NCBI GenBank assembly: GCA_030427295.1
Contig: JAUHWS010000001.1
Location: 14,079-78,078 of the forward strand
From: a bacterium
Lineage (GTDB): Bacteria; Patescibacteriota; Gracilibacteria; UM-FILTER-43-11
Reading direction: 5' to 3'
DNA: 64,000 nt
Positions 1,144 to 58,901 of the stretch are shown one piece after another. The notes below the pieces were generated by a model. That model was not told where the DNA came from, ran no database searches, and saw only the letters and a list, made by a program, of their open reading frames with translations. The stretch's first letter is position 1. Each line of letters begins with the position of its first letter. A program made the translations under genes and the position numbers.

Positions 1144-1343
1144 CCCTGAAGGCGAGGTTTGCAAACCTCGCCTTCATTGAAAAATAAGAAAACCATTTGT
1201 CATCCTTGGAACCCAAAGGGCCCCCTTAGGGGCTTGATCCAAGAGTCGTCTGTATTTGGAACTTCTGAATTCAAAAAGACTCCCGAGTTCACCTTTCTGG
1301 TAAACCACTCGCTAAGCTCGTGGACCATAAAGGCTCGGGAGTG
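1144..1343 (+). repeat. About 200-bp structured repeat R, copy 1 (second copy at 49811-50009)
   Basis: Near-identical by eye to 49811-50009. Contains a 10-bp-stem hairpin gaaggcgagg..cctcgccttc, a tgtcat-ccttgga..tccaaga-gtcgtc hairpin, and a 9-bp inverted repeat actcccgag..ctcgggagt. Confidence 0.85.
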
Positions 1344-1362
1344 GTAGTGGGGTGTAGGGTGA

Positions 1363-1626
1363 GTATATACTTTGGATTGGGGTGGGTATATACTTTTTCT
1401 CAATGACCAATTTCCAATGTCTCAGTTTCCAAATAAAATCGAATTCTGAATATCTAATTTTTAAACCTTATTCAGACTTTAAATGGCTTAAATAAAACAA
1501 ATTATAAACCATTTGGACATTAAAAATTCAAATTTAGAATTTGTTTGGAAAGTATTGGAATGAATTAGTGAGTATTGGAATGAATTAAGACATAGGTATA
1601 TAGATGAGGAGAGGGTGAGTATATAC
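1363..1626 (+). repeat. GTATATAC double-box module M1 (interior type 1)
   Basis: Boxes at 1363-1370, 1386-1393, 1596-1603 (GTATATAG) and 1619-1626. The interior is an AT-rich word array (ccaatttccaa.. / ..attggaatgaatta) homologous in inverted orientation to 14407-14680. The last box directly abuts the stop codon (1627-1629) of the minus-strand glycosyltransferase gene. Confidence 0.85.
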
Positions 1627-2703
1627 TCACTCCTCCCTCAAGACCTCATACACCTGTTGGGCACAAGTTTCCCAGCGGTATTTTTTGAGGGTTTCAGGAT
1701 GTTTTTTTGTTTTCAAATCCTCTCCTTTTTTAGCCCCTGCAACCCGCTCCATCAACTGGCTCAATTGGACAGCATCGTCGACCTCAAAAAAGAAAGCATT
1801 TTCTGAGGCAATTTCTTTTGAGGTCGGAATCGCTGAAGCAATGATGGGGATGTCTGCATCCATGGCTTCTAAAAGGGGGATTCCAAAACCTTCTTCTCGA
1901 GAGGGAAAGACAAAAGCCAAGGCATGATGTAAAAACACCTGTTTCTCTTCCTCCGAAATGAAGCCTGGCAATACCACTTGGTCTTTCACATGGGGGGGAA
2001 TGGTTTTTAAAATGGCCTCCCCGCCATGGCCTGGAAACCCCGCCAGGACCAATTTAACCTCCTTGTTCCCCTCTCCAAAAAGACCAAAAGCCTGAATCAG
2101 CCGATCTGAGTTTTTTTTATATTCAATCCGTCCCACATACAAAAAATACCCCTTATCCTTCAAATCATATTTCTCTAGGATCTTTTTCTCTTCAATGGGC
2201 TGGACCGAAACCGTTGAAGGGGAAAAGCCCAAAGGAATCACTCTAATTTTCTCAGGATCACAGTCATAATAATGGATCAAATCAGCTTTGGTTTTCTCGG
2301 ACGGCGTGATGATGCGATGAGCCCGTTTGACCGCAAATCGAGTGGCCCAATCCAAATACCAGCGCGATTTCCGGCTGTAGCTTTTAGGCGAGTATTTAAA
2401 CACCACATCATGAATGGTGATGATCGATTTTTTGGGATGAATCAGGGGTAAAACATGAGAAGGAACAAAGAGCGTTTGAATTTCCTTATTCCTCAAAACC
2501 TCCCAACTCAAACGAAGATGGGTCCAAAGTCTCCGAAAAGGAATGGTAATCTGTTTCACTGGTAAATCAATCTTTCGAGGGCTAATCAAGGTGATGTCAT
2601 CCCCATAAGCCTTCACCAAATGCTGGATCAAAAAATAGGAATAATTCTCCACACCCGTGCGCTTTTCGGTGTTGTTGTAACGCGAGGCGTCGATAAATAT
2701 CAT
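1627..2703 (-). CDS. Glycosyltransferase family 4 (GT-B, group 1)
   Basis: 358-aa ORF with a C-terminal EEGFGIPLLEAMDADIPIIAS motif typical of GT4/group-1 glycosyltransferases. Confidence 0.85.
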   Translation of the reverse strand: MIFIDASRYNNTEKRTGVENYSYFLIQHLVKAYGDDITLISPRKIDLPVKQITIPFRRLWTHLRLSWEVLRNKEIQTLFVPSHVLPLIHPKKSIITIHDVVFKYSPKSYSRKSRWYLDWATRFAVKRAHRIITPSEKTKADLIHYYDCDPEKIRVIPLGFSPSTVSVQPIEEKKILEKYDLKDKGYFLYVGRIEYKKNSDRLIQAFGLFGEGNKEVKLVLAGFPGHGGEAILKTIPPHVKDQVVLPGFISEEEKQVFLHHALAFVFPSREEGFGIPLLEAMDADIPIIASAIPTSKEIASENAFFFEVDDAVQLSQLMERVAGAKKGEDLKTKKHPETLKKYRWETCAQQVYEVLREE

Positions 2704-2929: not shown

Positions 2930-3274
2930 ATGAAAATGGAAGGAGATAGTACAGATTATCAATTTGATGACGTAGATATGTCAGCTGAACCTCAAACAAC
3001 TGGAGACGATCATGGTCACAGTGATGCCGGTGCTGGTTCAATGAGTTCAGGAAGCCAAGGTCAAGATGGCGGCGGACGCTATGCTGATGAGCTATTTTCA
3101 AAGCAAATTCGAGCCAAATTCCGCACTTTTTATATCGATCTCAAGGAAAGTTCTAACGGAAAATTCATAAAGATCAGCGAAAAAAGTCATGGACGAAAGA
3201 GCACCATCATGATGGATGCTGAAGACGTGGCACCCTTTATCGAAGCGCTTCAAGAAGTGCAAGGTCAACTCTAA
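2930..3274 (+). CDS. PUR-alpha-like ssDNA/RNA-binding protein (DUF3276-like)
   Basis: An acidic/Gly-rich N-terminus, then ELFSKQIRAKFRTFYIDLKESSNGKFIKISEKS..STIMMDAEDVAPFIEAL. This resembles the bacterial PUR repeat family from memory. Confidence 0.6.
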   Translation: MKMEGDSTDYQFDDVDMSAEPQTTGDDHGHSDAGAGSMSSGSQGQDGGGRYADELFSKQIRAKFRTFYIDLKESSNGKFIKISEKSHGRKSTIMMDAEDVAPFIEALQEVQGQL

Positions 3275-4663: not shown

Positions 4664-4906
4664 TAACCATCCGTAAAACCATCCATAAACCGTACTTTCA
4701 ATGGTGGGCCGAAGGCTGGCCGCATAGTGGCTGATATTAGTTTTATAACCACCATTGGGTCCACAACTCGGTCCACCATCCGCCCCACGATTCGTAAGCT
4801 ATCCGTAGAACAATTCGTTAACCATTCGTAAAACCATCCGAAAACAATTCGTAGGCTATTCGTAAACAATTCGTTAACCATCCGCAACCCATCCGTAACC
4901 CATTCG
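4664..4906 (-). repeat. 11-nt periodic arrays (CCATTCGTAAN on the + strand): about 3 units, a hairpin-containing gap, then about 12 units
   Basis: ..aagctatccgt agaacaattcgt taaccattcgt aaaaccatccg aaaacaattcgt aggctattcgt aaacaattcgt taaccatccgc aacccatccgt aacccattcg. On the minus strand it begins 1 nt after the rny stop. The central gap carries a 9-bp inverted repeat, caatggtgg..ccaccattg. Confidence 0.85.
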
Positions 4907-11572: not shown

Positions 11573-11614
11573 GCAAAAGTATATACTAGGTATATACCTA
11601 GTATATACTTTTGC
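11573..11614. repeat. Perfect 42-bp palindrome with three GTATATAC boxes spaced 11 bp apart
   Basis: GCAAAAGTATATACTAGGTATATACCTAGTATATACTTTTGC equals its own reverse complement. Boxes at 11579-86, 11590-97 and 11601-08. Confidence 0.9.
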
Positions 11615-11661
11615 TTGACAAAAAAATTTGAAAGAATAAAATCAAATGACTGATTGATAAC

Positions 11662-12111
11662 TTGTTTATTGTAATGGGTCAGCCTTCAATTAACGTATTG
11701 TTTTTAAGCCAGAGGCCTGAGGCACCTGATGAAGGTGACCTCAAGACTATCAGAGGATACTTGCACGGAGTCCTGATGAGAATTGCATCTGTGGCAGCTT
11801 CGAGTGAAGATATGAGTGAAATTCGAAATGGCGTCGATAACTTTGTACACTCAGGCATGACAACTGCCAGGCAAAGAGGTCACTATGTGCAGACCGGTAA
11901 TGATGGCCGCTGGGAATACATAACTCATGATTTAGAAGGGGTTGATGTACGCAGACAAGTGATGTGTGTCCTAGAGGTGGCTGCACAACTTTTACATACA
12001 GCTGGCTCCTTTGTTCCCGCTCTATCTGGTCAGGACAAGAATGCTATTAAGCGCTTGGCAGGAGAAATTCGACGGCAGTCATCAGGTTCCAATGCACATG
12101 CAACTGCTTAA
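11662..12111 (+). CDS. Hypothetical protein (ORFan)
   Basis: 149-aa ORF (TTG start; an ATG alternative at 11674) with no recognisable motif. Called coding only from ORF length and absence of competing ORFs. Confidence 0.45.
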   Translation: MFIVMGQPSINVLFLSQRPEAPDEGDLKTIRGYLHGVLMRIASVAASSEDMSEIRNGVDNFVHSGMTTARQRGHYVQTGNDGRWEYITHDLEGVDVRRQVMCVLEVAAQLLHTAGSFVPALSGQDKNAIKRLAGEIRRQSSGSNAHATA

Positions 12112-12161
12112 AAGTCAAAACTCCCCCTTTATTCTCTCGCCAAAAACCATTACCATGGTGG

Positions 12162-13133
12162 GTGGTATTTTTCACCACGTCCATGACCTACCTACTCCTC
12201 ATCCTCGGTTTTGTTTTGCTCATTAAAGGGGCAGACTTTTTGGTGGACGGAGCCAGTTCCATTGCCAAGCGAGTAGGAATTTCGGATCTCATCATTGGGC
12301 TAACTATTGTTTCATTTGGAACCTCAGCGCCCGAACTGGTGGTCAACCTCATTTCCAGCTTACAGGGAGAAGGGGATATCGCCGTGGGGAGTATTGTGGG
12401 GAGTAACATTTCTAACATCCTGCTCATTTTAGGGATTTCAGCCATGATTTATCCCCTCAAAATCAAAAGTCAGACCACGTGGAAGGAGATCCCACTCAAC
12501 CTTTTAGCCGCCATCGTCTTATTCCTTGTTGCCAACGATCAATTGATCGATGGAGCTGAAACCTCGCTCTTGACCCGTATTGATGGACTAGTACTCATCT
12601 CCTTTTTCACTATTTTTATCTACTACACCATCCATATTGCTCGCTCGGAGCGAGAATTAACGGAGCAAACTCATTCTCGTCCCATCTGGCTGGCTCTAGT
12701 CATGACGGCAGTTGGAATTGTAGGGCTCACCTACGGAGGGCGTTGGGTAGTCAATAGCTCAATTGAAATTGCCTCCTCGCTCGGATTGAGTGAGGCGCTC
12801 ATTGGTTTAACTGTTGTCGCCCTAGGAACTTCATTACCAGAACTCGCCACCTCAGCTGTAGCCGCTTACAAAAGGAATACCGACATCGCCGTGGGAAATG
12901 TCGTGGGCTCCAACATCTTCAATATCTTTTGGGTCCTTGGCTTCAGCTCAAGTATCAATGACATCAATTTTTCCCCAAGCATCAACACCGACATCCTTAT
13001 CTTCGTTGGGGCGACCATTTTACTCTTTTTCTTCTCATTCACAGGAGGTCACCACCGAGTCACCAAACAAGAGGGTTTCATGATGCTTTTTGCCTACGTT
13101 GGCTACATCGTCTTTTTAGTATTGCGAGGATAA
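12162..13133 (+). CDS. Ca2+/Na+ (CaCA family, YrbG-like) antiporter
   Basis: Two alpha-repeat motifs, GTSAPELVVN and GTSLPELATS, and about 10 TM segments. Confidence 0.88.
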   Translation: MVFFTTSMTYLLLILGFVLLIKGADFLVDGASSIAKRVGISDLIIGLTIVSFGTSAPELVVNLISSLQGEGDIAVGSIVGSNISNILLILGISAMIYPLKIKSQTTWKEIPLNLLAAIVLFLVANDQLIDGAETSLLTRIDGLVLISFFTIFIYYTIHIARSERELTEQTHSRPIWLALVMTAVGIVGLTYGGRWVVNSSIEIASSLGLSEALIGLTVVALGTSLPELATSAVAAYKRNTDIAVGNVVGSNIFNIFWVLGFSSSINDINFSPSINTDILIFVGATILLFFFSFTGGHHRVTKQEGFMMLFAYVGYIVFLVLRG

Positions 13134-13145
13134 CTTTCAAAACAA

Positions 13146-14405
13146 ATGAAATCGATCTTTAAACACCTCATTCAATTTTTGCTGGGATTTAAAGCACATC
13201 GTTTCCTTAAAAAAAATCGTATCCAAGTCATTGCCATCACAGGCAGTGTGGGGAAAACCAGTACCAAAGAAGCCATTTACACGGTCTTGAAGGATCGATT
13301 CTCCGTGATGCGAAGCCGCAAGAGTTTTAACACGCCCATCGGCATGAGTCTAGCCATTCTAGGTGAGGAAGAGTCCGGTTTTTCATCTACAAAAGCCTGG
13401 GTCAAAATCTTATGGCGGGTGTTTGTAAAGAAAGGGGAAATTCCTCAAAAGATCATTCTCGAAATGGGGGCCGACAAACCCGGAGATATCAAGGCGCTCA
13501 TGCGCATTGCTCCACCTCATATTTCCATCGTCACAGCAGTTAAACCGGTTCATTTGGCAGAGGGACAATTCAAAGACATCGATGATATTGCCAAAGAGAA
13601 AGGTCGACTCGTCAACGATCTCCCTCGATTTGGTTTGGCCATTTTAAACCAAGATGACCCCCGTGTCAGTCAAATGAAAACCGTCGCCAAAAAGCTGACC
13701 TACGGCATTGATAGATCGTCAGATTTACAAGCCTCCGAAATCAAAATGACCCCCAAAAAAATCCATTTTGAAGTGCTCTATAAAGGAGAATCAGCCCGTT
13801 GTGAACTACCAGTGGTGGGCGCCTATCATATCTATGTGGCGCTCCCTGCCATTGCGGTGGGCATTTCGATGGGCATGAGTTTAGCCGAATCGTGTAAGAC
13901 ATTGGCTCATTTTCATCTCCCTTCAGGGCGCATGAACCCGATTGAAGGCCTTAATGGGGCGCACATTTTGGATGGTTCCTATAATGCCAGCCCCTCCACC
14001 ATGAAAGCGGCACTACAGATGTTAGAAGAGCTCAAAGCTCCTCGAAAAATAGCAGCCTTAGGGACCATGAATGAGTTAGGAAAACAATCCTTCGACGCCC
14101 ACATTGAAGTGGGAAAAATGGCAGGAGCGATTGCAGATCTAATCATTGCCGTAGGGCCAGAAGCCCAAAATCTCAAGCAGGGTGCCGTGGTCGCAGGGAT
14201 GAATGCTGAGTCTATTTTTACCTTTGACGATTCAAAAGAAGCAGGAGACTTACTCGCCAAAAAACTTCAAGAAGGGGACCTGGTTCTAGTGAAGGGGTCT
14301 CAAAATAAAGTACGCATGGAACGTTTAGTCAAACAAATCATGAAGGACCCCAAGCGCGCCCCCGAACTCCTCTGCCGACAAGGAAAAGCCTGGACTGAAC
14401 GGTGA
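13146..14405 (+). CDS. murF: UDP-N-acetylmuramoyl-tripeptide--D-alanyl-D-alanine ligase
   Basis: Mur ligase P-loop ITGSVGKTSTKE, plus central and C-terminal Mur ligase domains (DGSYNASP). Confidence 0.88.
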   Translation: MKSIFKHLIQFLLGFKAHRFLKKNRIQVIAITGSVGKTSTKEAIYTVLKDRFSVMRSRKSFNTPIGMSLAILGEEESGFSSTKAWVKILWRVFVKKGEIPQKIILEMGADKPGDIKALMRIAPPHISIVTAVKPVHLAEGQFKDIDDIAKEKGRLVNDLPRFGLAILNQDDPRVSQMKTVAKKLTYGIDRSSDLQASEIKMTPKKIHFEVLYKGESARCELPVVGAYHIYVALPAIAVGISMGMSLAESCKTLAHFHLPSGRMNPIEGLNGAHILDGSYNASPSTMKAALQMLEELKAPRKIAALGTMNELGKQSFDAHIEVGKMAGAIADLIIAVGPEAQNLKQGAVVAGMNAESIFTFDDSKEAGDLLAKKLQEGDLVLVKGSQNKVRMERLVKQIMKDPKRAPELLCRQGKAWTER

Positions 14406-14406
14406 A

Positions 14407-14680
14407 GTATATACTCATCCTCTCCCCAACTATATACCTAAGTCTTAAATTTCCAATTCACACCAATTCATTCCAATTCACCCCAAACAAATTTTAAAGT
14501 CTAATTCTTAATTTCTAAATTGGTTTGAATTTGCTTTATTTAAGCTATCTTTATTCCAAATAATGTTTAAAAATTAGACATTCGGAATTCGGTTTTATTT
14601 GGAAATTGTGACATTGGAAATTGGTCATTGAGAAAAAGTATATACCCACCCTCACAAAAAGTATATACCTAAGTATATGG
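14407..14680 (-). repeat. GTATATAC double-box module M2 (interior type 1, inverted relative to M1)
   Basis: Boxes at 14407-14, 14430-37 (CTATATAC), 14638-45 and 14661-68, plus a degenerate box at 14673-80. The first box starts 1 nt after the murF TGA (ggTGAaGTATATAC). Confidence 0.85.
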
Positions 14681-14714
14681 TTGTCATTCCCCCGCCACGG
14701 CGGGGGAATCGTCC
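14681..14714 (+). repeat. GTCATTCC-hairpin-GGAATCGTCC element
   Basis: ttgtcattcccccgccacggcgggggaatcgtcc. The architecture matches the elements at 19738, 20128 (inverted) and 20198. Confidence 0.75.
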
Positions 14715-19585: not shown

Positions 19586-19737
19586 TTTGCGATATTTATT
19601 GCTAATATTTGTATTATATATGATGCTATATTTAATGTCAAATTTAGTGCTATTTTTAAGTTATCCTAGTTCAATAGCTCAAAAACTAAGCAGTTCCTCT
19701 ATTTGTAGTGAAATGACAGTTAGAGCCAACTACACAA

Positions 19738-19780
19738 TGTCATTCCACACCGAAGCGAAGCGGAAAGCGTGGAATCGTCC
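19738..19780 (+). repeat. GTCATTCC-hairpin-GGAATCGTCC element
   Basis: tgtcattccacaccgaagcgaagcggaaagcgtggaatcgtcc. Confidence 0.8.
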
Positions 19781-20159: not shown

Positions 20160-20197
20160 ATCAAAAATTTAAGCTCAAAAATAAAAATAATTACAAA

Positions 20198-20240
20198 TGT
20201 CATTCCACACCGGAGCAAAGCGGAGAGCGTGGAATCGTCC
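20198..20240 (+). repeat. GTCATTCC-hairpin-GGAATCGTCC element
   Basis: tgtcattccacaccggagcaaagcggagagcgtggaatcgtcc, near-identical to 19738-19780. Confidence 0.8.
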
Positions 20241-27481: not shown

Positions 27482-27558
27482 GCGCCAGTAGCTCAGGGGA
27501 TTAGAGCGTCCGGTTGCGGTCCGGGAGGTCGCAGGTTCGATTCCTGCCTGGCGCACCA
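27482..27558 (+). tRNA. tRNA-Arg (anticodon GCG), CCA encoded
   Basis: Cloverleaf read by hand: acceptor GCGCCAG/CTGGCGC, D arm GCTC-AGGGGATTA-GAGC, anticodon arm TCCGG-TTGCGGT-CCGGG, variable loop AGGTC, T arm GCAGG-TTCGATT-CCTGC, discriminator A, then CCA. Confidence 0.9.
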
Positions 27559-27682
27559 TCGCAAAATAATGCTTCAGCTTGCACATGAGTCTCATTCTAA
27601 GCCTCCTGTTTCAGCTTATGTACCATTTTGCTCTTTCCCATGAAATATGCCTTCGACTTCGCATTTTATGGGGACCTCTGAC

Positions 27683-27773
27683 TAATCGCTAATCGCTAAT
27701 CGCTAATCGCTAATCACTAATCGCTAATCACTAATCGCTAATCACTAATCACTAATCGCTAATCACTAATCGC
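27683..27773 (+). repeat. Perfect-phase heptamer microsatellite, 13 units of TAATCGC/TAATCAC
   Basis: Read directly. The order of G/A unit variants is G G G G A G A G A A G A G. Confidence 0.92.
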
Positions 27774-27873
27774 TCTTTAAAAATCATTGATATTTCCGCA
27801 AAGCCGAAAACGCACACCAGCCGAACAAAGAATTCCCCTTCCTCTCCCGCCCGCTTTACACTACAATACAGCC

Positions 27874-28521: not shown

Positions 28522-28650
28522 TGAAGCGACTAGCGAGTAGCGACGAGCGATTAGCTAAAATAGATCTTAGAATAGAGCTAAACACTACACGCCAATCGCT
28601 AAACGCTCTAAAAATTCGTAATTCGTAATTTGTAACTCGTAATTAAAAAG
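28522..28650 (-). repeat. Box-less copy of module interior type 2 (AGCGNNN and ATTCGTA heptamer blocks)
   Basis: tgaagcgact agcgagt agcgacg agcgatt agc ... aattcgt aattcgt aatttgt aactcgt aatt aligns with the reverse complement of 31140-31270. It fills the ftsE-purM spacer. Confidence 0.75.
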
Positions 28651-31102: not shown

Positions 31103-31343
31103 GTATATACTTTGGGTTGGGGTGGGTATATACTTTCGCCTCAATTACGAGTTACTAATTACGAATTACGAGTTTATTTTTTGAGCGTATAGCGATCAGC
31201 GTATAGCGTTTAGCTTTTTAAAATAAGGTTTTTAGCTAATCGCTACTCGCTATTCGCTAATCGCTTGTTGAAAAATGTATTGAGATGGTGCTCAGCATTT
31301 TGAAGAGGGTGAGTATATAGTTGAGGCGAGGATGAGTATATAC
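31103..31343 (+). repeat. GTATATAC double-box module M3 (interior type 2)
   Basis: Boxes at 31103-10, 31126-33, 31313-20 (GTATATAG) and 31336-43. The interior has ATTACGA x4, AGCGNNN x5 and CGCTANT x4 heptamer blocks, homologous to 50039-50270. Confidence 0.85.
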
Positions 31344-33995: not shown

Positions 33996-34110
33996 ACGAA
34001 TGGGATGCGGATAGGTTGCGAATGGGCGACGGATAGTTTTACGAATGGCTTCACGGATGGTTTACGGATTGTTTTTGAATAGGGTGCGAATAGGTTACGA
34101 ATTGATTTCG
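33996..34110 (+). repeat. 11-nt periodic array, about 10 units (acgaatgg gatgcggatag gttgcgaatgg gcgacggatag ...)
   Basis: Starts at the nt immediately after the dprA TAA. It lies between convergent genes. Confidence 0.88.
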
Positions 34111-36350: not shown

Positions 36351-36436
36351 GCGGATAGGTTACGAATGGGTTGCGGATAGCTGCGAATGGTTTACGAATA
36401 GTTAACGGATAGGTTGCGGATGGGTAGCGAATGGTT
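36351..36436 (+). repeat. 11-nt periodic array, about 8 units (gcggatag gttacgaatgg gttgcggatag ctgcgaatgg tttacgaatag ttaacggatag gttgcggatgg gtagcgaatgg)
   Basis: Starts at the nt after the TGA at 36348-50. Confidence 0.88.
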
Positions 36437-36849: not shown

Positions 36850-36930
36850 CCTAGGAGGGGGCTGTTATTTTTCCCTCTCCTAACATTTTAGGAGAGGGAC
36901 ACAGGGTGAGGTCCTGGATAAAAGAATGAA

Positions 36931-37149
36931 GTATATACTCACCCTCTCCTCAACTATATACCTATCCTCCTCAAAAAGCTGAGAGCTCGCAGCTTGTCGC
37001 TGGGAGTGAAATTCAGTTGATACAATTCTCTATTCATCTTAAATAAGAGATAATTTGAGTTATTCTAAATATTGAATAGTCTACCAGCTAACAGCTAATA
37101 GCTACCAGCTAGAAAAAAGTATATACTAACCCCACCATAAAGTATATAC
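36931..37149 (-). repeat. GTATATAC double-box module M4 (interior type 3)
   Basis: Boxes at 36931-38, 36954-61 (CTATATAC), 37119-26 and 37142-49. The interior, with ACCAGCT/AACAGCT/AATAGCT heptamers, is homologous to 60134-60352. Confidence 0.85.
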
Positions 37150-38479: not shown

Positions 38480-41400
38480 ATGGCTAAAACCAAGCAAGCT
38501 GCTTTGACTCTTGAGCCCACGAAAGTTATCAATGGGCGACATTACTTCACCGAGACCGAAGACAGCTACCGTTTACCCCCACTGATTGAGATCCAACTCA
38601 ATTCCTATCAGTGGTTTTTGACCGATGGACTCAAAGAGCTCCTCCAAGAAGTCTCTCCCATCACCGACTTTTCGGGCAAGAAGATGGAACTCCACTTCCT
38701 CAGTCATAGCTTGGACAAGCCAAAACACGATCCTCTCACCGTCAAACGCAAAAATCTCACCTACGAAGGATCGCTTAAGGCCCACGTTCAGCTCATCAAC
38801 AAAGAAACCGGCGAAATTAAAGAGCAAGACATCTTCTTGGGTTCCATCCCTTTAATGACCGACAAAGGAACCTTCATCATCAACGGAATCGAACGGGTGG
38901 TCGTCAATCAAATTGTTCGAAGTCCGGGCGTGTTCTATTCCAAAAATCCTGCCGCCCCGCAGTACTTCAACGCCAAAATCATTCCAAAACGAGGGGCCTG
39001 GCTCGAAATTGAAACCGATAAAAAAGGCGTCATCTACGTCAAAATTGATCGAAAACGCAAAATCCCAGTCACGCAACTCCTCCGCATCTTCGGGATGGAG
39101 AAAGATGCTGACATGCTAGACATGTTTAAAGACGTGAATGTCGATTTAAACAACGATTACATTCAAAACACGCTCGAAAAAGACAGTGCGCGCACCTTGG
39201 ATGATGCCTATCAATCCATCTATAAAAAAATCCGCCCCGGTGATCTGGCCACACCCGAAAACGCCAAGCAGCTTATCGAAGGGCTTTTCTTCGACTTTAA
39301 GCGCTACGACATGGGGCTGATTGCGCGTTACAAACTCAATAAACGATTCGGCACCTCCATCGGTACCGAAATGAAAGATCGCATTTTCCAAACTGAAGAT
39401 TTTGTCAATATTCTCAAGCAACTCATCGAGCTCAACAACGGCGAAGGAGGTCCAGACGACATTGATCATCTGTCCAACCGTCGGGTTCGCAGTGTCGGAG
39501 AACTAGTTCAAAACAAGTTCCGCATGGGGCTACTCCGTACCGACCGCATTGCCAAAGATCGCATGACCATCATGGATCTAGAAGCAGCTACGCCGACCCA
39601 GCTCATCAACTGCCGACCGATCACGGCGGCGCTACGCGAATTCTTCGCCAGCTCTCAGTTGTCTCAGTTCATGGACCAAACTAACCCATTGTCTGAACTG
39701 GCGCACAAACGCCGTATTTCAGCCATGGGTCCTGGAGGGTTATCACGTGAACGCGCCTCCTTTGACGTGCGTGATGTGCACGCTTCTCACTACGGACGTA
39801 TTTGTCCCATCGCCACGCCCGAAGGACCGAACATCGGACTTGTGGTACATCTGGCCGCTTATGCTAGAGTCAACGAATATGGATTCATCGAAACACCCTA
39901 TCGAACCGTTGAGCACTTTAAAGAACCGGTCGCTTCAGAGCTCACGGGTTTGATGATTGATGAAGAAGTGAAAGATGGTCGAAAAATAATCGCCAAACCC
40001 GGTGATCGCTTGACCAAGACACAAGCCAGTGCGGTTGCAAAGATTAAAAAAGCCATCAAAAACCCACCGGTTGAAAAACTAGACAAACCCATTCCTGTTC
40101 AACTCATTGGGAAACTTGCTGCTGAAGACCTAAAAGTGGGTCGAAAAATCATTCTCAAGAAAGGGGAAGAAATCACTCCAGAAAAAGCACGGGCAGCCGT
40201 CAATGGAGGAAAATTAAAATCCATTAAAGTCCAAGAAAAGGCTCAAAATCTCGTCCGCATTCGAGCCCGCCTTATCGACGAAGTCAAATATTACGATGCC
40301 GACGCTGAGCGACATTTCGTCGTGGCTGAAACCAATGCAGAAATTGATGAAAACGGACAATTTGTAAGCACTCGTGTGGCTGCTCGTAAGCAGGGTGAGC
40401 CCAACATCGTGCACATCCGTGACCTGACCCACATCGACATCGCACCGAAACAAATTGTATCGGTCACCACTTCGCTCATTCCCTTCCTCGAACACGATGA
40501 CAACACTCGTGCGTCCATGGGATCAAACATGCAACGTCAAGCCGTCAGCCTCCTTTCCCCCGAAGCACCCATCGTCGGAACCGGGATGGAAGGACTCACC
40601 GCTTCCAGTTCAGGGCAAGCGGTGGTGGCACGTGGAAGTGGAACCGTTGAGATGGTGGATGCGGACCACGTGGTCGTCAAATACGCTGACGGAAAAAAAG
40701 AAGAATATCCCATTCTCTCTTTCCAACGCTCCAACCAAGCCACGGCCATCAACATGCGTCCCGCTGTGACCAAAGGTCAAAAAGTCAAAAAAGGAGACAC
40801 ACTCATCGATGGCGCCGCCGTACAAAAAGGCGAACTCGCGCTCGGTCGAAACTTGATGGTAGCCTATATGTCTTGGGGGGGATACAACTACGAAGACGCG
40901 ATCATCATTTCCGATCGTGTGGCCCGCGAAGGATTCTACGATTCAGTGCACATCGAATCCTTCACCGTCGATGTCCGCGACACCAAACTCGGTCCCGAAA
41001 TTGTCACGCGCGACATTCCAAATGTCGGAGAGGCTCGCTTAAAAGATCTTGATGTCGATGGAATTGTTCGCATCGGAGCGACGGTTCACGAAGGAGACAT
41101 CCTCGTAGGTAAAATCACACCAAAAGGAGAAACGGAACTCACGGCTGAAGAACGGCTTTTACAAGCCATTTTCGGTGATAAAGCCAAGGATGTTAAAGAC
41201 ACTTCACTCCGGCTTCCCGGAGGAGAAGGGGGGAAAGTGGTCGACGTTCAAATTTTCAGTAGACAAGAAGGCGATGAGCTCCCCACCGGAGTCATCCGAC
41301 AAATCAAAGTCTTTGTGTCCCAAACCCGTAAAGTTCAAGTGGGGGATAAAATGGCCGGTCGGCACGGGAACAAAGGGGTGATCTCTCGCATTGTTCCTTC

Positions 41401-42310
41401 TGAAGACATGCCGTTCATGGCGGATGGAACACCTGTAGACATCATCCTCAACCCACTCGGGGTATCCAGCCGTATGAACATTGGGCAGATTCTCGAAACC
41501 CATCTCGGTTGGGCAGCAGGTAAACTTGGTATTAAAGTGGCTACCCCAGCGCTCAATGGGATCAGTCTCGATCAAATTGGTCAACTCATGAAAGACGCTG
41601 GACTCCCAGAAGATGGAAAAATTCAACTCTTCGACGGTCGAACCGGAGAACCCTTCCAATACCCAACCGTGGTCGGAAAGGTTTACATGCTCAAGCTCCT
41701 TCACTTGGTTGAGGATAAGTTGCATGCCCGTTCAGTGGGGCCATACTCTCTGGTCACTCAGCAGCCTCTCGGGGGGAAAGCGCAGCATGGAGGACAGCGT
41801 TTCGGAGAAATGGAAGTATGGGCCTTGGAAGCTTATGGGGCCGCCTACACGCTTCAAGAAATGCTGACCATCAAATCCGATGATGTGGTGGGACGTGCCA
41901 AAGCCTACGAATCGATCGTTAAAGGAGAATCTATCAAAACCCCAAGTGTCCCTGAATCATTCAACGTCTTGGTCAAAGAGCTGAAGAGCTTGTGTTTGGA
42001 TGTTGAACTCCTCAAAACCGCTGGAGGCCATATAGAAGAAGTGGAGGTAGAGGATGTCATTGATGCTGGAGATGAAGATGAATTGATTCCATCTGCCGAT
42101 CAAATCGACGAACTCAATGAAGGAAAAGAGTCCGAAGAAGACGTTGAGAAAGAAGTGGAAGGCGAAAATCTTGGCGCCCATGATGCCATTGAAGAAATGG
42201 AAGAGGCAGCCACTGAAGATGAAGGCTCCGATGGACAGCTCTCTCAAAAAGAAATCAGCGATTTAGAAGAAGCAGCCATCGACGAAGAAGATAAGAAGAA
42301 TAAAAAATAA
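38480..42310 (+). CDS. rpoB: DNA-directed RNA polymerase subunit beta, with a lineage-specific insertion and a 90-aa acidic C-terminal tail
   Basis: Conserved blocks throughout (GTFIINGIERVVVNQ, SQLSQFMDQTNPLSELAHKRRISA, NMQRQAVSL, GRHGNKGVISR, GGQRFGEMEVWALEAYGAAYTLQE). Confidence 0.97.
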   Translation: MAKTKQAALTLEPTKVINGRHYFTETEDSYRLPPLIEIQLNSYQWFLTDGLKELLQEVSPITDFSGKKMELHFLSHSLDKPKHDPLTVKRKNLTYEGSLKAHVQLINKETGEIKEQDIFLGSIPLMTDKGTFIINGIERVVVNQIVRSPGVFYSKNPAAPQYFNAKIIPKRGAWLEIETDKKGVIYVKIDRKRKIPVTQLLRIFGMEKDADMLDMFKDVNVDLNNDYIQNTLEKDSARTLDDAYQSIYKKIRPGDLATPENAKQLIEGLFFDFKRYDMGLIARYKLNKRFGTSIGTEMKDRIFQTEDFVNILKQLIELNNGEGGPDDIDHLSNRRVRSVGELVQNKFRMGLLRTDRIAKDRMTIMDLEAATPTQLINCRPITAALREFFASSQLSQFMDQTNPLSELAHKRRISAMGPGGLSRERASFDVRDVHASHYGRICPIATPEGPNIGLVVHLAAYARVNEYGFIETPYRTVEHFKEPVASELTGLMIDEEVKDGRKIIAKPGDRLTKTQASAVAKIKKAIKNPPVEKLDKPIPVQLIGKLAAEDLKVGRKIILKKGEEITPEKARAAVNGGKLKSIKVQEKAQNLVRIRARLIDEVKYYDADAERHFVVAETNAEIDENGQFVSTRVAARKQGEPNIVHIRDLTHIDIAPKQIVSVTTSLIPFLEHDDNTRASMGSNMQRQAVSLLSPEAPIVGTGMEGLTASSSGQAVVARGSGTVEMVDADHVVVKYADGKKEEYPILSFQRSNQATAINMRPAVTKGQKVKKGDTLIDGAAVQKGELALGRNLMVAYMSWGGYNYEDAIIISDRVAREGFYDSVHIESFTVDVRDTKLGPEIVTRDIPNVGEARLKDLDVDGIVRIGATVHEGDILVGKITPKGETELTAEERLLQAIFGDKAKDVKDTSLRLPGGEGGKVVDVQIFSRQEGDELPTGVIRQIKVFVSQTRKVQVGDKMAGRHGNKGVISRIVPSEDMPFMADGTPVDIILNPLGVSSRMNIGQILETHLGWAAGKLGIKVATPALNGISLDQIGQLMKDAGLPEDGKIQLFDGRTGEPFQYPTVVGKVYMLKLLHLVEDKLHARSVGPYSLVTQQPLGGKAQHGGQRFGEMEVWALEAYGAAYTLQEMLTIKSDDVVGRAKAYESIVKGESIKTPSVPESFNVLVKELKSLCLDVELLKTAGGHIEEVEVEDVIDAGDEDELIPSADQIDELNEGKESEEDVEKEVEGENLGAHDAIEEMEEAATEDEGSDGQLSQKEISDLEEAAIDEEDKKNKK

Positions 42311-42364: not shown

Positions 42365-42790
42365 ATGAGAAGTGTTAATAAGGTCATCCTTGTTGGAAAC
42401 CTCACACGAGATCCTGAGCTCAAGCAAACGACAGGAGGACAATCCATTGTCACCTTTGGCATGGCCACCAATCGAGAATGGGTCACGGGAGACAATGAAA
42501 AAAAATCACTTGCCGAATACCACAATATTGCTGCTTGGGGACCCCTCGCTGAAATTTGTGGAAAATACCTCAAAAAAGGAAAATTAGTCTACATCGAAGG
42601 CTACTTAAAAACACGCTCATGGGACAGTCCGGAAGGGGTAAAAATCTTCAAGACTGAGATTGTCGCCACTGACATGATCATGCTCGACAAGCGCCCTCAA
42701 GATGAGGGCTTGCCAAATAACGACCATTTTGAAGATCATATGAGCAGCCCTGAAGAGCCGGATGACAATGTATTTGATCCCGCTGCCTAA
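42365..42790 (+). CDS. ssb: Single-stranded DNA-binding protein
   Basis: OB-fold pattern VNKVILVGNLTRDPELK..TFGMATNREW..EYHNIAAWGPLAEICGKYLKKGKLVYIEGYLKTRSWD. The acidic tail ends DDNVFDPAA. Confidence 0.9.
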   Translation: MRSVNKVILVGNLTRDPELKQTTGGQSIVTFGMATNREWVTGDNEKKSLAEYHNIAAWGPLAEICGKYLKKGKLVYIEGYLKTRSWDSPEGVKIFKTEIVATDMIMLDKRPQDEGLPNNDHFEDHMSSPEEPDDNVFDPAA

Positions 42791-42835: not shown

Positions 42836-45800
42836 ATGACACAATTAAAAGGCCCAAAGAAGCACGAAGACTTTGACTCCATCAGTCTTTCGATTGCGAG
42901 TCCTGACTCCGTGCTCGCCTGGTCTCATGGAGAAGTCACCAAGCCAGAAACCATCAACTACAGAACCCAAAAACCAGAACGAGACGGGCTTTTCTGCGAA
43001 AAAATCTTTGGCCCCACCAAAAACTGGGAGTGTTACTGTGGGAAGTACAAACGCATTCGCTACAAAGGTGTGGTGTGTGAAAAATGTGGAGTTGAAGTCA
43101 CTCGTAGCATCGTTCGCCGTGAACGTATGGGGCATATCAGTCTAGCAGTACCGGTCACTCACATCTGGTTTCTCCGTTCCACACCAAGCCGACTTGGTCT
43201 ACTTTTAGATCTACCGATCAAAGCCATCGAACAAGTGATTTATTTTGCCGCCTACATCATCACCAATGTCGATGGAGAGGCTAAAAAAGAAGCCCTCGAG
43301 AATTTGGACAAAGACTTCCAAACCTACAAAAAACAAATTCAAGAAGAGTTCAAAGCCAAATCCAATGATTTAAAGATCAAGGCCCGAGCCAAAAATGAAG
43401 AATTGTCTGAAGAAGAAATGGAAGCCATCGATCACGATGATTCCGAAGCAGAGGCCGTGCTGAAATCAGAAGATTCCTTTGCTCAAAAGATCGAGGAACT
43501 GACCATGCAACACAATCAGGCCAAAGATGATCTAGAAAACCTTGCCATCGGAAAGGTTTTGGGAGAAATCGAATACCGAGAACTTTCCATGAAATTTGGT
43601 CATGTCTTCCATGCCGGAACCGGGGCAGAGTCCATCCGAAAAATTCTCGAACAAATGGACTTAAAAGCCTTTATTAAAGAATTAGAAGAACTTCGAAAAA
43701 AGAGCACGGGTCAAAAGTATAAAAAACTCCTTCGCCGTATCCGGCTTGCTTCTGCACTGATCAAAGCCAAAATTCGCCCTGAATGGATGGTGATTAGCCA
43801 ATTGCCTGTCATTCCACCAGATTTAAGACCAATGGTTCAACTCGATGGCGGGCGTTTCGCCGCCTCAGATCTCAATGACCTTTATCGTCGTGTGATCAAT
43901 CGTAACAACCGTCTAAAACGCCTCATGGCCATCGGAGCTCCTGAGGTCATCTGCCGAAATGAAAAACGCATGCTGCAAGAAGCTGTCGACACCCTCTTCA
44001 ACAATGCTGCTCGTGCGGGCCGTGCCGTCTTCACAGCAGGGGACAAGCGTAAGCTCCGCTCTCTTTCTGACATGCTTAAAGGGAAGCAAGGGCGCTTCCG
44101 TCAAAATCTCTTGGGTAAACGTGTGGACTACTCTGGTCGTTCCGTGATCGTGGTCGGTCCTCAGCTCAAGCTTAATGAATGTGGGCTACCTAAAGAAATG
44201 GCCCTCAAACTCTTCAAACCCTTTGTCGTCGGAGAGCTCATCCGCCAAGAGTTAGCTCACAATGTTAAAGGAGCCGAACGTCTCATCGATGAAGGGAAAA
44301 AAGAAGTGTGGGACATCCTAGAAAATGAAACTCAAAAGCGATTGGTCTTGCTCAACCGGGCACCGACCCTTCACCGCTTAGGGATTCAAGCTTTCAAACC
44401 TGTCCTGATCGATGGGAAGGCCATCCAAATCCATCCGCTTGTTTGTGCAGCCTTCAACGCCGACTTTGATGGAGACCAAATGGCCGTTCATCTGCCACTT
44501 TCTGTAAAAGCCCAAGATGAGGCTAAAGAACTCATGTTGGCCACCACCAACTTGCTCAAGCCATCGGCTGGGGAACCGATCATCACACCGTCTCAAGACA
44601 TGGTATTAGGGGTATACTACCTTACTCAGGGCTTCAAAGGAAAGAAAGGGGAAGGCATGACCTTTGCCAATGTCAACGAAGCCATCAATGCGTATCGGAT
44701 GGGGTATGTTGATTTACAAGCCTTTGTCAACGGACGTGCAGAAGGACAAATCATTGAAAACACCACAGTAGGACGCCTGATTTTTAACACCTTCCTTCCC
44801 GAAGAGATTGGTTATGTCAACGAAACCGTCGGAAAAAATGGGCTCAAAGGCTTATTGGCAGACATTCTCGACAAAGCCGGCCCAGAAAAAACTGCATTGG
44901 TCGCCGACGAGTTCAAACGAATCGGATTTAAATTTGCCACCAAATCAGGGATCACTATCTCAGCCTTCGACATGCTGGTGCCAGAATCTCGTGAAGAGCT
45001 CATTGCTGAGGCAGACGAAACGGTTCGAAAGATCAACAATCAGTACTGGAAAGGATGGATCACAGAAGACGAACGTTACCATCATGCCATCCGTCTGTGG
45101 TCTTCCCTCAAAAACAGTGTGACGGGCCAAATGATTGAAAAATTTCAAGGAAACCCCGAAAACAACATTTATTACATGATCGACTCAGGTGCCCGTGGGA
45201 ACTGGGGGCAGATCACCCAGCTCTGTGGAATGAAAGGGTTGGTAGCCAACCCCTCTGGTAAAACCATTGAGCTCCCGATCAAGTCCAATCTAAAAGGAGG
45301 ATTCTCCATCCTCGAATACTTCATCGCAACGCATGGAGGACGTAAAGGAAAATCGGATACTGCGCTTAAAACAGCGGAAGCCGGTTACCTCACCCGTCGT
45401 TTGGTGGATGCCGTGCAAGATATCGTCATCAAAGAGTCTGATTGTGGAACCATTGTAGAACACATCATCACACGTGAAGAAAGTGAGCAAATTGGGGAAG
45501 ATTTCGAAAACCGTATCTTTGGGCGAACCTTGGCAGTCAATATCGAGGATCCAAAAACCAAGAAAGTCATTGCCAAGAATGGTGTGCAGCTAGACAACGA
45601 TATCACCGCAGCCGTCAAAGGTGCTCAAATTGAGGAAGTGGCCGTTCGATCCATCATGACCTGTACCACCGAAAATGGCATTTGCCAACAATGTTACGGA
45701 TTCGACTTGGGAACCAACAAGTTGGTCGATTTAGGAACTGCTGTCGGGATCATTGCCGCGCAAAGTATCGGAGAGCCTGGAACGCAGCTCACCATGCGGA

Positions 45801-46732
45801 CCTTCCACATGGGAGGGGTGGCCGAAGGGTCTGATATCACCCAAGGGCTGACTCGGGTGGAAGAACTTTTTGAAGCCCGTTCACCAAAAGGCGCCGCAGT
45901 TTTGGCTGATATCTCTGGGAAAATATCGATTAAAAATAACAAAGATCAGATTGAAGTCACCATCAAAGCTCAAGAATTAGGAGGTGACACCTACCGCATC
46001 CCACCCGATTTTGAAGCTGTGGTTAAAAAAGGCGACAAGATCAAGCCAAAGCAAATCATTGCACGAGCCATTGGAGAAAAGAATACTTTCAAATCGACCG
46101 ATGAAGGAGAAGTGGTGAAAGTGACCGAGACCGAAATCATCACAAAGCACACTGAAAAGCACGAAAAAACCTATCTTTTCGGTCCAAAGGAAAAAATCAC
46201 TGTCAAGAACAACGATCTCATCGCTCGGGGGACCCCTCTCAACCGTGGTCACCTCAACCTGCAAGAGTTGATGCAAGCCACCGATGTGTACACCACTCAG
46301 AAGTATATCATGACGGATGTGCAGCACATCTATGCGTCTCAAGGTCAAACCATTAACGATAAACACATCGAGATCATCGTGAAACAAATGTTCTCCAAGG
46401 TGCGGATCATGAATCCAGGGGATTCAGATTTCTTGCCAGGCGAATTGGCCAATACCGAGCAGTTCAACAACACCAATAATGAACTAAAGAAAGCCAAAAA
46501 GACCCTGGCCCACGGAGAACGCCTGCTCTTAGGAATCTCACGTGTGGCTATCACCACCAACAGCTGGCTATCAGCCGCTTCCTTCCAAGAAACCATCCGT
46601 GTTTTGGTGGAAGCAGCGACCACTCGAAAGATTGATAACCTAAAAGGCTTGAAAGAAAACGTAATTATTGGTAAACTCATCCCCGCTGGCCACGTCTATA
46701 AGAGTAATTATGAAGCAAAAAGCCAGGAATAA
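42836..46732 (+). CDS. rpoC: DNA-directed RNA polymerase subunit beta'
   Basis: Zn-finger [23 protein letters not shown], catalytic [12 protein letters not shown], trigger-loop and bridge-helix blocks. Confidence 0.97.
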
Positions 46733-49810: not shown

Positions 49811-50009
49811 CCCTGAAGGCGAGATTGGCTAATCTCGCCTTCATTGAAAAATAAGAAAACCATTTGTCATCCTTGGAACCCTAAGGGCCCCTTAGGGGCT
49901 TGATCCAAGAGTTGTCTGTATCTGGAACCTCTGAATTCAAAAAGACTCCCAAGTTCACCTTTTTGGTAAACCACTCGCTAAGCTCGTGGACCATAAAGGC
50001 TCGGGAGTG
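49811..50009 (+). repeat. About 200-bp structured repeat R, copy 2
   Basis: Near-identical to 1144-1343 and likewise followed directly by a GTATATAC module. Confidence 0.85.
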
Positions 50010-50038
50010 ACATTAAGGTGTGGGGTAGGTATATACTT

Positions 50039-50270
50039 TGTGTGAGGGTTAGTATATACTTTATTCTTAGTTACGAATTACGAGTGACGAATTACGAGTT
50101 GATTTTTTGAGCGTTTAGCGGTCAGCGTATAGCGTTTAGCTCTATTCTAAGCTCTATTTCAGCTAATCGCTAGCCACTCACCACTGACCACTTGCCGAAA
50201 AAGGAAGCGGGACGATTCCCAGCATTTCGAAGAAGGTAGGTATATAGTTGGGAAGAAGGTGAGTATATAC
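50039..50270 (+). repeat. GTATATAC double-box module M5 (interior type 2)
   Basis: Boxes at 50039-46, 50062-69, 50240-47 (GTATATAG) and 50263-70. The interior is homologous to M3. Confidence 0.85.
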
Positions 50271-56469: not shown

Positions 56470-56470
56470 A

Positions 56471-56554
56471 ATGTCTGATGTCTAATGGGCTAATGTCTAA
56501 TGGGGACAATCATTTGGAAAATACAAAAAGCATAAGACATTAGACATCAGACAT
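56471..56554. repeat. Perfect 17-bp inverted repeat (atgtctgatgtctaatg / cattagacatcagacat) with a 50-nt loop
   Basis: Left arm 56471-56487, right arm 56538-56554. Built from agacatc/agacatt heptamer words. It starts 1 nt after the lipoprotein stop and is followed by an A-run, not a T-run. Confidence 0.85.
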
Positions 56555-56566
56555 CAAAAAAACCCT

Positions 56567-56595
56567 TTGACAGGCGAGGGGGCATTTGCTAAAAT
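56567..56595 (+). promoter_or_regulatory. Strong sigma-70-like promoter for tuf (TTGACA-17-TAAAAT)
   Basis: TTGACA at 56567-72, a 17-nt spacer, TAAAAT at 56590-95, about 100 nt upstream of the tuf ATG. Confidence 0.65.
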
Positions 56596-56695
56596 CCAGC
56601 TTGCTTGTTTTTCAGATTGGCAAAGTTCGTATTGAATGAACGACGCAAATGTGTAAGAATAGGCGTGACTATTAACTATTTAATCAATACATATT

Positions 56696-57883
56696 ATGGC
56701 TGAAGGAACATTTGATCGCAGCAAGCCACACGTGAATGTTGGGACCATTGGTCACGTCGACCATGGTAAAACAACACTCTCTGCTGCACTTTGTACAGTT
56801 GCTGCTGCACAAGGACATGGTAAGGCAGTAAGCTTCCAGGACATTGATAATGCTCCTGAAGAAAAGGCTCGTGGTATTACCATTGCCACCTCTCACCAAG
56901 AGTACGAAACAAACAAGCGTCACTACGCTCACGTGGATTGTCCTGGGCATGCTGACTACGTTAAGAACATGATTACGGGTGCCGCTCAAATGGATGGTGC
57001 CATCTTGGTGGTTTCTGCTGCTGATGGACCAATGCCACAAACTCGAGAACACATCCTATTGGCTCGCCAAGTAGAAGTACCTCACATTGTGGTCTTCTTG
57101 AACAAATGCGACATGGTAGACGATCCAGAACTTCTCGACTTGGTTGAAATGGAGATCCGTGAACTTCTCAACAAATACGAATTCCCTGGAGACGACACGC
57201 CAATCATCCGTGGTTCTGCGCTTAAAGCGCTTGAAAACCCATCTGGAGATGATGCTAAGCCAGTGGTTGAACTCCTCAACAAGTTGGATGAATACATTCC
57301 AGATCCAAAACGTGATATCGATAAAGACATGTTGATGCCCGTTGAAGATATCTTCTCTATCAAAGGTCGTGGTACCGTTGCCACGGGTCGTATCGAACAA
57401 GGGGTGGTTAACGTGAATGACGAAGTTGAAATCGTCGGTCTACGTGACACCAAGAAAGTGGTTGTGACGGGAGTAGAAATGTTCCGAAAACTGCTTGATC
57501 GTGGTCAAGCTGGAGATAACGTTGGCTTGCTCCTTCGTGGGGTAGAGCGTGACGATATCGAACGTGGACAAGTGATCGCTAAACCAGGAACCATCACACC
57601 TCACAGTGAATTCGAAGCTGAAATCTACGTTTTGAGTAAAGAAGAAGGAGGGCGTCACACGCCATTCTTCAAAGGTTACAAACCTCAGTTCTACATCCGA
57701 ACGACTGACGTAACCGGTGAAGTTCATCTTCCAGAAGGAACCGAAATGGTGATGCCTGGAGATAACATCAAACTCCGTGTGACCCTTGGTAAAAACATCG
57801 CCCTAGAAGACGGAACCCGTTTCGCGATCCGCGAAGGAGGTCGAACCGTTGGAGCGGGTGTGGTCACCAAGATCATCAAATAG
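56696..57883 (+). CDS. tuf: Elongation factor Tu
   Basis: [22 protein letters not shown], and full-length similarity to EF-Tu. Confidence 0.98.
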
Positions 57884-57891
57884 ACCTTTTG

Positions 57892-57935
57892 TCCCGATAG
57901 GCTTCCGAGCTTATCGGGATTATAAGTTTTATTTG
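57892..57935 (+). terminator. Hairpin plus T-rich tract after tuf (terminator/attenuator)
   Basis: tcccgatag-gcttccgagc-ttatcggga followed by ttataagttttattt. Confidence 0.55.
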
Positions 57936-58036
57936 ACTGGAGCAATTCCCTTTGTGGAAACTCCTACCACATTTAAGCTTAGTAAGCTCCATAAGCTCTG
58001 TAAGCTAAAATGTACAATTCGTAACCTCTCAAACCC

Positions 58037-58369
58037 ATGGCTGCTAAAAAAGATTCTGGCAATAAACAACGCATTCGCATTACCCTAAAAGCCTTCGATC
58101 ATACCATCATCGATAAGGCTGTTGAAACCATTATCAGCACAGCAGAACGCACGGGGGCTATTGTGGCTGGGCCAATTCCGCTTCCTACCAAGATTAAAAA
58201 ATTCACGGTTCTCAAATCAACTTTTGTCTCTAAAGACTCTCGTGAACAATTCGAAATGCGCATCCACAAACGTTTGATTGACCTGCGCGAAACCACCTCT
58301 TCAACCATCGACTCACTCACCAACCTCTCGCTTCCTGCCGGAGTGGACATTGAGATTAAAATGCTTTAA
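58037..58369 (+). CDS. rpsJ: 30S ribosomal protein S10
   Basis: [11 protein letters not shown]......I...A...GA...GPIPLPT......VL.S....[15 protein letters not shown]. Confidence 0.96.
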
Positions 58370-58402
58370 TAGCGATTAACGATTAGCGAGTAACGAATAA
58401 CA
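58370..58402 (-). repeat. Heptamer word array (tagcgat taacgat tagcgag taacgaa taac)
   Basis: Starts at the nt after the rpsJ TAA. Confidence 0.75.
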
Positions 58403-58863: not shown

Positions 58864-58901
58864 TAAGGATTTGCTATAATTTCAGTAAGCGCTTTAAAGA
58901 A

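Follow-up and report, generated by a model that had tools for sequence, protein, structure and literature searches.

A 64,000-nt stretch of the genome of a bacterium of the Gracilibacteria (Patescibacteriota, lineage UM-FILTER-43-11; assembly GCA_030427295.1, contig JAUHWS010000001.1, positions 14,079 to 78,078), hereafter called the window, carries six gene-less repeat modules whose left ends open with the self-complementary octamer GTATATAC. In three of the six modules the left end begins 0-1 nt past the TGA stop codon of a gene, namely the genes for a GT4 protein, for MurF and for an FMO-like oxidoreductase. This abutment goes beyond chance, to a degree that depends on the model used. Judged by alignment, the three proteins are full length and have not been trimmed by the element. 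We regard the modules, with a probability of about 0.5, as a lineage-specific gene-less repeat family that resembles MITEs (miniature inverted-repeat transposable elements) or the repetitive extragenic palindromes and mosaic elements known as REP/BIME, and that has settled in the tolerated slots of a compact genome. All counts refer to the window unless stated otherwise, and six modules were examined.

Module left ends and TGA stop codons

The octamer occurs 22 times, compared with 0.15 copies expected from shuffles, and every copy falls in the six modules or in one solo palindrome. The modules are 219-430 nt long, multi-copy (six per 64 kb), dispersed, intergenic and non-coding. None of the six lies inside a gene, and their strands alternate along 60 kb (-, +, -, +, -, +; three plus, three minus). 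The three fused genes and the modules are as follows.

1627-2703, minus strand: GT4 open reading frame (ORF); its TGA (1627-29) abuts GTATATAC at 1619-26
1615-1630, minus strand: perfect 16-nt palindrome GTGAGTATATACTCAC, which includes the GT4 stop TGA (1627-29)
13146-14405, plus strand: MurF ORF; TGA at 14403-14405, then A, then the left direct repeat of m2, with GTATATAC at 14407-14
58902-59921, plus strand: FMO-like oxidoreductase ORF; TGA at 59919-59921, then A, then the left direct repeat of m6, with GTATATAC at 59923-30
1363-1626, minus strand: module m1, core type A; left direct repeat 1593-1626; terminal octamer (1619-26) abutting the GT4 stop
14407-14668, plus strand: module m2, core type A; left direct repeat 14407-14440, right direct repeat 14638-14671; one long hairpin
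31103-31343, minus strand: module m3, core type B; right end 14 nt past the DUF1704 stop
36931-37149 (36927-37149 with its TGAA leader), plus strand: module m4, core type C; no gene upstream
50029-50270, minus strand: module m5, core type B; left end with AGAA before GTATATAC and no stop; upstream of fusA
59923-60352, plus strand: composite module m6, made up of left direct repeat, partial B core, internal direct repeat (60134-60167), C core and right direct repeat

A first-pass annotation of this DNA had placed the stops, the module ends, the copy at 36927-38 and the DUF1704 stop correctly. It had also noted that the copy at 36927-38, which reads TGAAGTATATAC, has no gene upstream, and indeed the frame before its TGA comprises 24 codons and no start codon. 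The stop of the DUF1704/MATCAP ORF lies at 31086-88, and the end of m3 that follows it at 31103 is the one opposite to the fused ends; the left end of m3, with AAGA before GTATATAC, faces the start of a tenA-like gene. The junctions at murF and at the oxidoreductase gene are not assembly artefacts, because independent Logan contigs of run ERR3428543 are identical to the window there (L001 = 11585-14428, L015 = 56472-60269).

Each of the six left ends is preceded by ...GA or ...GAA, a motif of 2-3 nt seen in a sample of six; the last letters are AGA in m3 and AGAA in m5. Because GA or GAA precedes every left octamer, TGA is the only stop codon that can be fused. Translation with code 11 yields full-length conserved proteins (RpoB, RpoC, EF-G and EF-Tu), and TGA is thus a stop codon in this genome. 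Selenocysteine insertion or read-through of UGA was rejected, since the reading frame, counted against the repeat, differs among the three fusions, and recoding of UGA also disagrees with the code 11 translations. The idea that the native stop was displaced to the right flank (C-TAA-GT) was likewise discarded: CTAAGT also occurs inside the left direct repeat of m2.

How surprising three such junctions are was estimated with several models. Uniform insertion over present intergenic DNA gives P = 3.5e-6, insertion at a TGA target P = 6.6e-5 and insertion at a GTGA target P = 4.6e-4; these window-wide models rest on today's spacers, which are inflated by repeats. With three convergent spacers and a TGA target as conditions the joint P is 0.003, and with a tiny ancestral GT4 spacer added it becomes about 0.03-0.06 in the most generous local model. 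No stop codon is used less often than TGA, which ends 10 of 54 genes. Fused stops are found in 3 of the 10 TGA-ending genes and in none of the 44 genes ending in TAA or TAG (Fisher P = 0.005). Pure coincidence, in which three fusions would have arisen by chance among intergenic repeats, draws on the small sample of six modules and on that most generous model. It appears exceedingly improbable in view of the other models (3.5e-6 to 4.6e-4), the association with TGA (P = 0.005) and the junction sequence, which is identical in all three cases.

Gene ends and orthologous loci

The first-pass annotation had suggested that the element might supply a new stop codon and trim the C-termini of its host genes. 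Alignment with orthologues refuted the trimming. MurF ends 7 residues past the conserved CRQ motif, and 97 of 119 homologues have a tail of this length. The best named MurF homologues (about 55-62% identity) belong to Candidatus Peregrinibacteria and Patescibacteria, and the genome is Peregrinibacteria-like. The end of the GT4 protein lies between -1 and +5 residues from those of 26 homologues, with matches to NCBIfam profiles that stop no more than 3 positions short of the profile ends. For the oxidoreductase, the end differs by at most 2 residues from those of its three closest orthologues.

The modules are absent at the orthologous loci of relatives with 53-64% protein identity, which are too distant to define the module boundaries. 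The murF locus of two relatives (L016 and L021) shows TAA followed by an ordinary spacer and no module. No module is present at the oxidoreductase locus in L014, L022 and L023 or at the GT4 locus in L019, L020 and L021, and the octamer was not found at any of the orthologous sites in these relatives. The L019 locus has a short periodic repeat directly past the GT4 stop. In a closer relative (JGI 3300010234), whose MurF is 79% identical, the module-like sequence TAA-AGTATAAGCTCAT stands at the same junction, and its contig breaks right after it. Logan look-ups with the proteins of the window returned only contigs of the same organism, broken in repeats, and no empty-site variants.

The relatives also show how little room the native spacers offer. 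The convergent spacer between GT4 and SpoIIE measures 2 nt in L021 (9814-9815) and 55 nt in L020 (1252-1306), compared with 672 nt here (955-1626), where repeats account for its whole length (a fragment of core C, GC hairpins, core D and m1). The DNA 3' of the oxidoreductase gene spans 21-128 nt in the relatives, and their native 3' spacers range overall from 2 to 128 nt. Convergent spacers, 7 of the 53 spacers of the window, contain all three of the fused modules. Insertion sequences are known to accumulate in excess between convergent genes (PMC2942039). This placement lowers the surprise, because insertions between convergent genes are the least harmful.

Donation of a stop codon is conceivable without any trimming. 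The TGA (or GTGA) would then be the outermost part of the element and would replace the native stop exactly; it would form either the left arm of a palindrome at the terminus, (G)TGA-GTATATAC-TCA(C), or a 4-nt repeat leader. All three fused stops are TGA although TGA is the rarest stop (10/54; Fisher P = 0.005), and m4 carries TGAA where there is no gene, whereas m3 and m5 carry AGA and AGAA, so that the T is not invariant. In m1 the 16-nt palindrome GTGAGTATATACTCAC spans the stop, and the two ends match over 12 nt in inverted orientation (GTGAGTATATAC). A G precedes the TGA in all three fused cases, and the resulting GGUG is predicted to pair with CACC of the right direct repeat in the fold. 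TGAA, the four nucleotides before the left direct repeat, lines up with AAAA, TAAA and GAAA, which lead the internal and right repeats. MurF orthologues use TAA, and donation is conceivable mainly for murF. The 79% relative has TAA and not TGA at this very junction. The module-free orthologues of the other two genes mostly end in TGA already (GT4 2/3, oxidoreductase 2/3, 4/6 together), against a background of 10 of 54 genes here and 3 of 24 among the remaining genes of the relatives, and the TGA stops of GT4 and of the oxidoreductase gene are probably native. Furthermore, replacing the same codon three times would need a precision beyond any known mechanism. Stop donation is an unlikely explanation.

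Module anatomy and the conserved octamer

The module ends, which the first-pass annotation located correctly, are not simple inverted ends. They are direct repeats of about 34 nt with the form GTATATAC-N15-[G/C]TATATAC-CTA. The left direct repeat reads GTATATAC-TCACCCTCTCCTCAA-CTATATAC-CTA and the right one GTATATAC-CCACCCnnnnnnAAA-GTATATAC-CTA(AGT); they match at 27 of 34 positions (79%) in the same orientation. Each direct repeat contains two invariant octamers of the form [G/C]TATATAC spaced 23 nt apart, and the conserved unit is GTATATAC with a tail YCACCC. Since the ends are direct repeats, the module boundary is ambiguous by a few nucleotides. Terminal inverted repeats were not found beyond the self-complementary octamer itself, m1 alone having the 12-nt inverted match mentioned above. 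Comparison of the flanks of all six modules revealed no target-site duplication, and the module ends have no separate subterminal hairpins.

Between the direct repeats lie cores of about 150-200 nt, mosaics in which periodic repeats of 7-11 nt form inverted pairs. Three core types can be distinguished: A in m1 and m2, B in m3, m5 and the first half of m6, and C in m4 and the second half of m6. Because the periodic repeats are in inverted orientation, the cores fold into hairpins; m2 is predicted to form one long hairpin (z = -6.2). All predicted pairs are preserved between m1 and m2, with one compensatory pair on one strand and four on the other. Both strands fold equally well and no RNA strand is indicated. 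The modules contain only chance reading frames of at most 67 aa, without homologues and without a common ORF family, and no tRNA. No Rfam family was found in them at gathering thresholds, and relaxed thresholds gave only sub-threshold hairpin matches.

Across the 13 direct repeats of the six modules all 26 octamers are intact, while cores of the same type are only 74-83% identical (m1 and m2 share 83%). This difference argues for constraint on the octamers.

The solo palindrome is the one place outside the modules where the octamer occurs.

11575-11612, no strand assigned: solo perfect palindrome of 38 nt with three GTATATAC octamers 11 nt apart; fold z = -10

A TGA stop lies 27 nt before it, and a promoter-like TTGACA-17-TAAAAT comes just downstream. 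In the 79% relative the palindrome is kept (L002, 942-979) with a symmetric double change from TAGG...CCTA to TCGG...CCGA, and the spacer flanking it has diverged. Its probable role is that of an operator or of a bidirectional hairpin.

These observations bear on the possibility that the modules are functional 3'-end cassettes, maintained by the host and not currently mobile, which would act as mRNA 3' hairpins or terminators or as phased binding sites of a lineage-specific protein that would recognise GTATATAC. Function would then demand a start at the stop codon, and recombination would have spread and homogenised the copies. The intact octamers within cores that diverge by 17-26%, the symmetry-keeping change in the solo palindrome, the long hairpin of m2 with all its predicted pairs retained in m1, and the module-like sequence at the murF junction of the relative are all in keeping with this idea, as is the fact that other repeat arrays begin at stops as well. 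However, half of the modules (m3, m4 and m5) do not sit at a stop codon, two of them being inverted relative to their flanking genes. The equal folding of both strands, the many stop-abutting arrays that fold no better than shuffles, and the more distant relatives that do without such an element also speak against it. On balance we hold a functional cassette to be unlikely.

A related proposal combines several of these features: an ORF-less direct-repeat cassette with phased GTATATAC palindromes, of a kind not described before, would integrate exactly at stop codons, its TGA-GTATATAC-TCA overlapping or supplying the stop. It would thus target stop codons or replace them, and the octamers, also those in solo sites like 11575-11612, would be read by a dedicated candidate protein. 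In this combined form the proposal is distinctly doubtful.

Site-specific recombination would offer another route, with the direct repeats as attachment sites and the cores moved by a recombinase encoded elsewhere, so that integration would take place at octamer-like sequences that happen to follow stops. The ends are repeated directly (79% alike) and not in inverted sense, target duplication is absent, and m6 has the arrangement repeat, core, repeat, core, repeat. Moreover, m1 and m5 run on past their right direct repeats into a further common unit of about 215 nt, core D, and the degenerate octamers GTATATGG, GTGCACAC and GTGTACCG are present in the right flanks of m2, m3 and m6. Against this, no transposase or recombinase gene or domain was detected in any window ORF scanned, nhmmer found no solo direct repeat (an empty attachment site) in the window, and the octamer is missing from the orthologous sites of the relatives. 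Such a route is highly unlikely.

1144-1362, minus strand: core D, adjoining the right direct repeat of m1; the other copy (49811-50028) adjoins that of m5

The two copies of core D are about 90% identical (88-91%). Core D has five hairpins, the final one without a T-run after it, and no Rfam match. Promoter-like sites (ATGACA or GTGATA, 16 nt, TATACT) are present on the minus strand at 14660-14687 and 60344-60371. In m2 as in m6 the right flank together with the last octamer makes up such a site, which faces the module and runs antisense to the gene upstream.

Repeat context, known systems and the preferred explanation

The modules are not the only repeats that begin at stop codons. Periodic arrays with periods of 7, 10 and 11 number 28 besides the modules, and 12 of these have their start no more than 6 nt from a stop, four of them at distance 0. 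TAA, TAG and TGA are abutted alike, and five arrays abut start codons. Repeat DNA in this lineage generally fills 3' spacers from the stop codon on. A core-B-like cassette that lacks the terminal repeats does the same.

28522-28650, plus strand: core-B-like cassette without GTATATAC repeats; occupies the entire spacer and begins 3 nt past a TGA stop

Examples of the arrays are found at 33996-34102, 36351-36429, 56470-56502, 58370-58401 and 4790-4906, with units such as CGAATGG, CTAATCG and AATGTCT. Thirteen tandem CTAATCG heptamers (27682-27774) lie between tRNA-Arg(GCG) (27482-27558) and an ABC ATPase gene. In a separate hairpin family the feet, (A)TGTCATTCC ... GGAATCGTCC, are conserved while the interior varies; one member (14680-14712) directly follows m2, and two others (19736-19780 and 20196-20240), 460 nt apart, lie upstream of or inside the annotated pheS start.

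The gene content of the window is that of ordinary housekeeping (rpoB, rpoC, fusA, tuf, rpsL, rpsG, rpsJ, pheS, murF and murA-like genes). A gene for a single-strand-binding protein (42365-42790) is located between rpoB (38480-42310) and rpoC (42836-46732). The 134-aa ORF at 35946-36350 matches only the middle of a transglycosylase domain (profile positions 87-148 of 178) and is probably the remnant of a penicillin-binding-protein gene; its TGA stop lies at the first unit of an 11-nt array, and the ORF is followed by a DUF559 endonuclease-like gene. A gene of the bAvd/23S-rRNA-intervening-sequence protein family (58473-58832) is found between rpsJ and the oxidoreductase gene, and a similar gene is present near GT4 in the relative L019. 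The gene at 2930-3274 encodes a PurA-like ssDNA/RNA-binding protein and is syntenic with RNase Y and GT4 in the relatives. PurA-family proteins bind purine-rich repeats, and one may speculate that this protein relates to the G-rich 11-nt arrays.

Bacterial MITEs are small (about 100-400 bp), ORF-less, dispersed and intergenic, form long hairpins and comprise subfamilies with shared ends (PMC2229807, PMC3184786). The modules resemble MITEs such as Correia/NEMIS, ERIC, RUP and Nezha in size, lack of ORFs, intergenic dispersal, hairpin folding and subfamilies with shared ends. Small, non-coding and dispersed as they are, they lack the inverted repeats of about 10-40 bp that characterise MITEs, carrying direct repeats instead, and they show no target-site duplication. 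An insertion sequence related to them is not known, their cores are mosaics of 7-11-nt repeats, and their copies are 74-83% alike and not near-identical. As to empty and filled sites, the relatives with 53-64% identity, too distant for the boundaries to be defined, lack modules at the three sites, and the site of the 79% relative appears filled.

The REP/BIME elements (REPINs) of proteobacteria are likewise extragenic, often lie at 3' ends or in convergent spacers and combine motifs in mosaics. They can lie a few nucleotides from stop codons, as Liang, Rudd and Deutscher reportedly described in 2015, and REP elements within 15 nt of a stop are reported for E. coli. In contrast to REP/BIME, the modules lack the 20-40 nt GC-rich palindrome headed by GTAG/CGTC, their unit being an 8-bp AT-rich palindrome repeated at 23 nt; there is no RAYT gene in the window, and the host is a candidate-phyla-radiation bacterium. 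With IS200/IS605-type elements the modules share the lack of target duplication, the non-inverted ends and a short fixed motif before the left end, although this is only GA/GAA (2-3 nt, n = 6) and not a tetra- or pentanucleotide as in IS200/IS605. They differ in having no strand bias (three plus, three minus) and none of the expected subterminal hairpins, and the window contains no tnpA or tnpB. Heptamer and related periodic arrays fill intergenic DNA, as the short tandemly repeated repetitive (STRR) heptamers of cyanobacteria do, and form the module cores. Unlike STRR heptamers they stand in inverted pairs, some of them framed by GTATATAC direct repeats, and belong to a different phylum. Integron-like and dif-module-like cassettes are also bounded by direct repeats and form arrays with shared sites, as in m6 with three repeats and two cores. 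Unlike in those systems, neither a recombinase domain in the ORFs nor, by nhmmer, a solo repeat was detected, both searches covering the window only.

No description of these repeats was found in the literature. No further copies were found with the left and right direct-repeat patterns in metagenomes, in viral sequences, or with the concatenated module ORFs among proteins. A degenerate two-octamer pattern searched against genome contigs gave 11 unrelated chance matches among the matches listed.

We propose that ...GA or ...GAA followed by GTATATAC reflects a junction or target preference of the repeat family, and that a preceding T would turn it into TGA. In GT4 and in the oxidoreductase gene the module would have arrived directly 3' of the native TGA. 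With native 3' spacers of a few to about 100 nt, the position right after the stop may be the only one that spares both the gene and the downstream terminator or promoter. Surviving insertions would therefore accumulate at this position, above all where genes converge. Mobility, a mechanism of insertion and a trans-acting protein that reads the octamer are elements of this proposal that we infer. The suggestion of the first-pass annotation that the element inserts at or near stops holds as a description: the abutment is non-random, and the corresponding sites of relatives show an ordinary stop and no module. Recognition of the stop itself does not follow. The GA(A) preference, the tiny native spacers and purifying selection explain much of the pattern.

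Several points weigh against this explanation. All MurF orthologues end in TAA, and the murF TGA would therefore be either a later TAA-to-TGA change or derived from the element. Simple models of a target plus chance remain low, at 6.6e-5 window-wide and 0.003 to 0.06 locally. With six copies examined and module-free sites seen only in distant relatives, mobility and exact boundaries are deduced indirectly. There is no target duplication, the inverted ends amount to the palindromic octamer, and the window holds no transposase or recombinase. The TGAA leader, which aligns with AAAA, TAAA and GAAA, may accordingly be part of the element. That the octamers are perfectly conserved speaks for a function at each locus, which the explanation leaves unspecified.

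The usual picture of candidate-phyla-radiation bacteria is one of streamlined organisms with few repeats. The repeats described here swell a spacer of 2-55 nt to 672 nt, and the perfectly conserved octamers of one repeat family would imply a protein partner. Such repeats also break metagenome assemblies exactly at gene ends, and all four Logan contigs of this organism that were examined end in repeats. If the modules were in fact targeted to stop codons, this would be an unusual insertion specificity and a source of errors in calling gene ends. If instead the pattern is due to selection in a compact genome, which we consider more likely, the modules would be a clear case of purifying selection positioning selfish or structural DNA.

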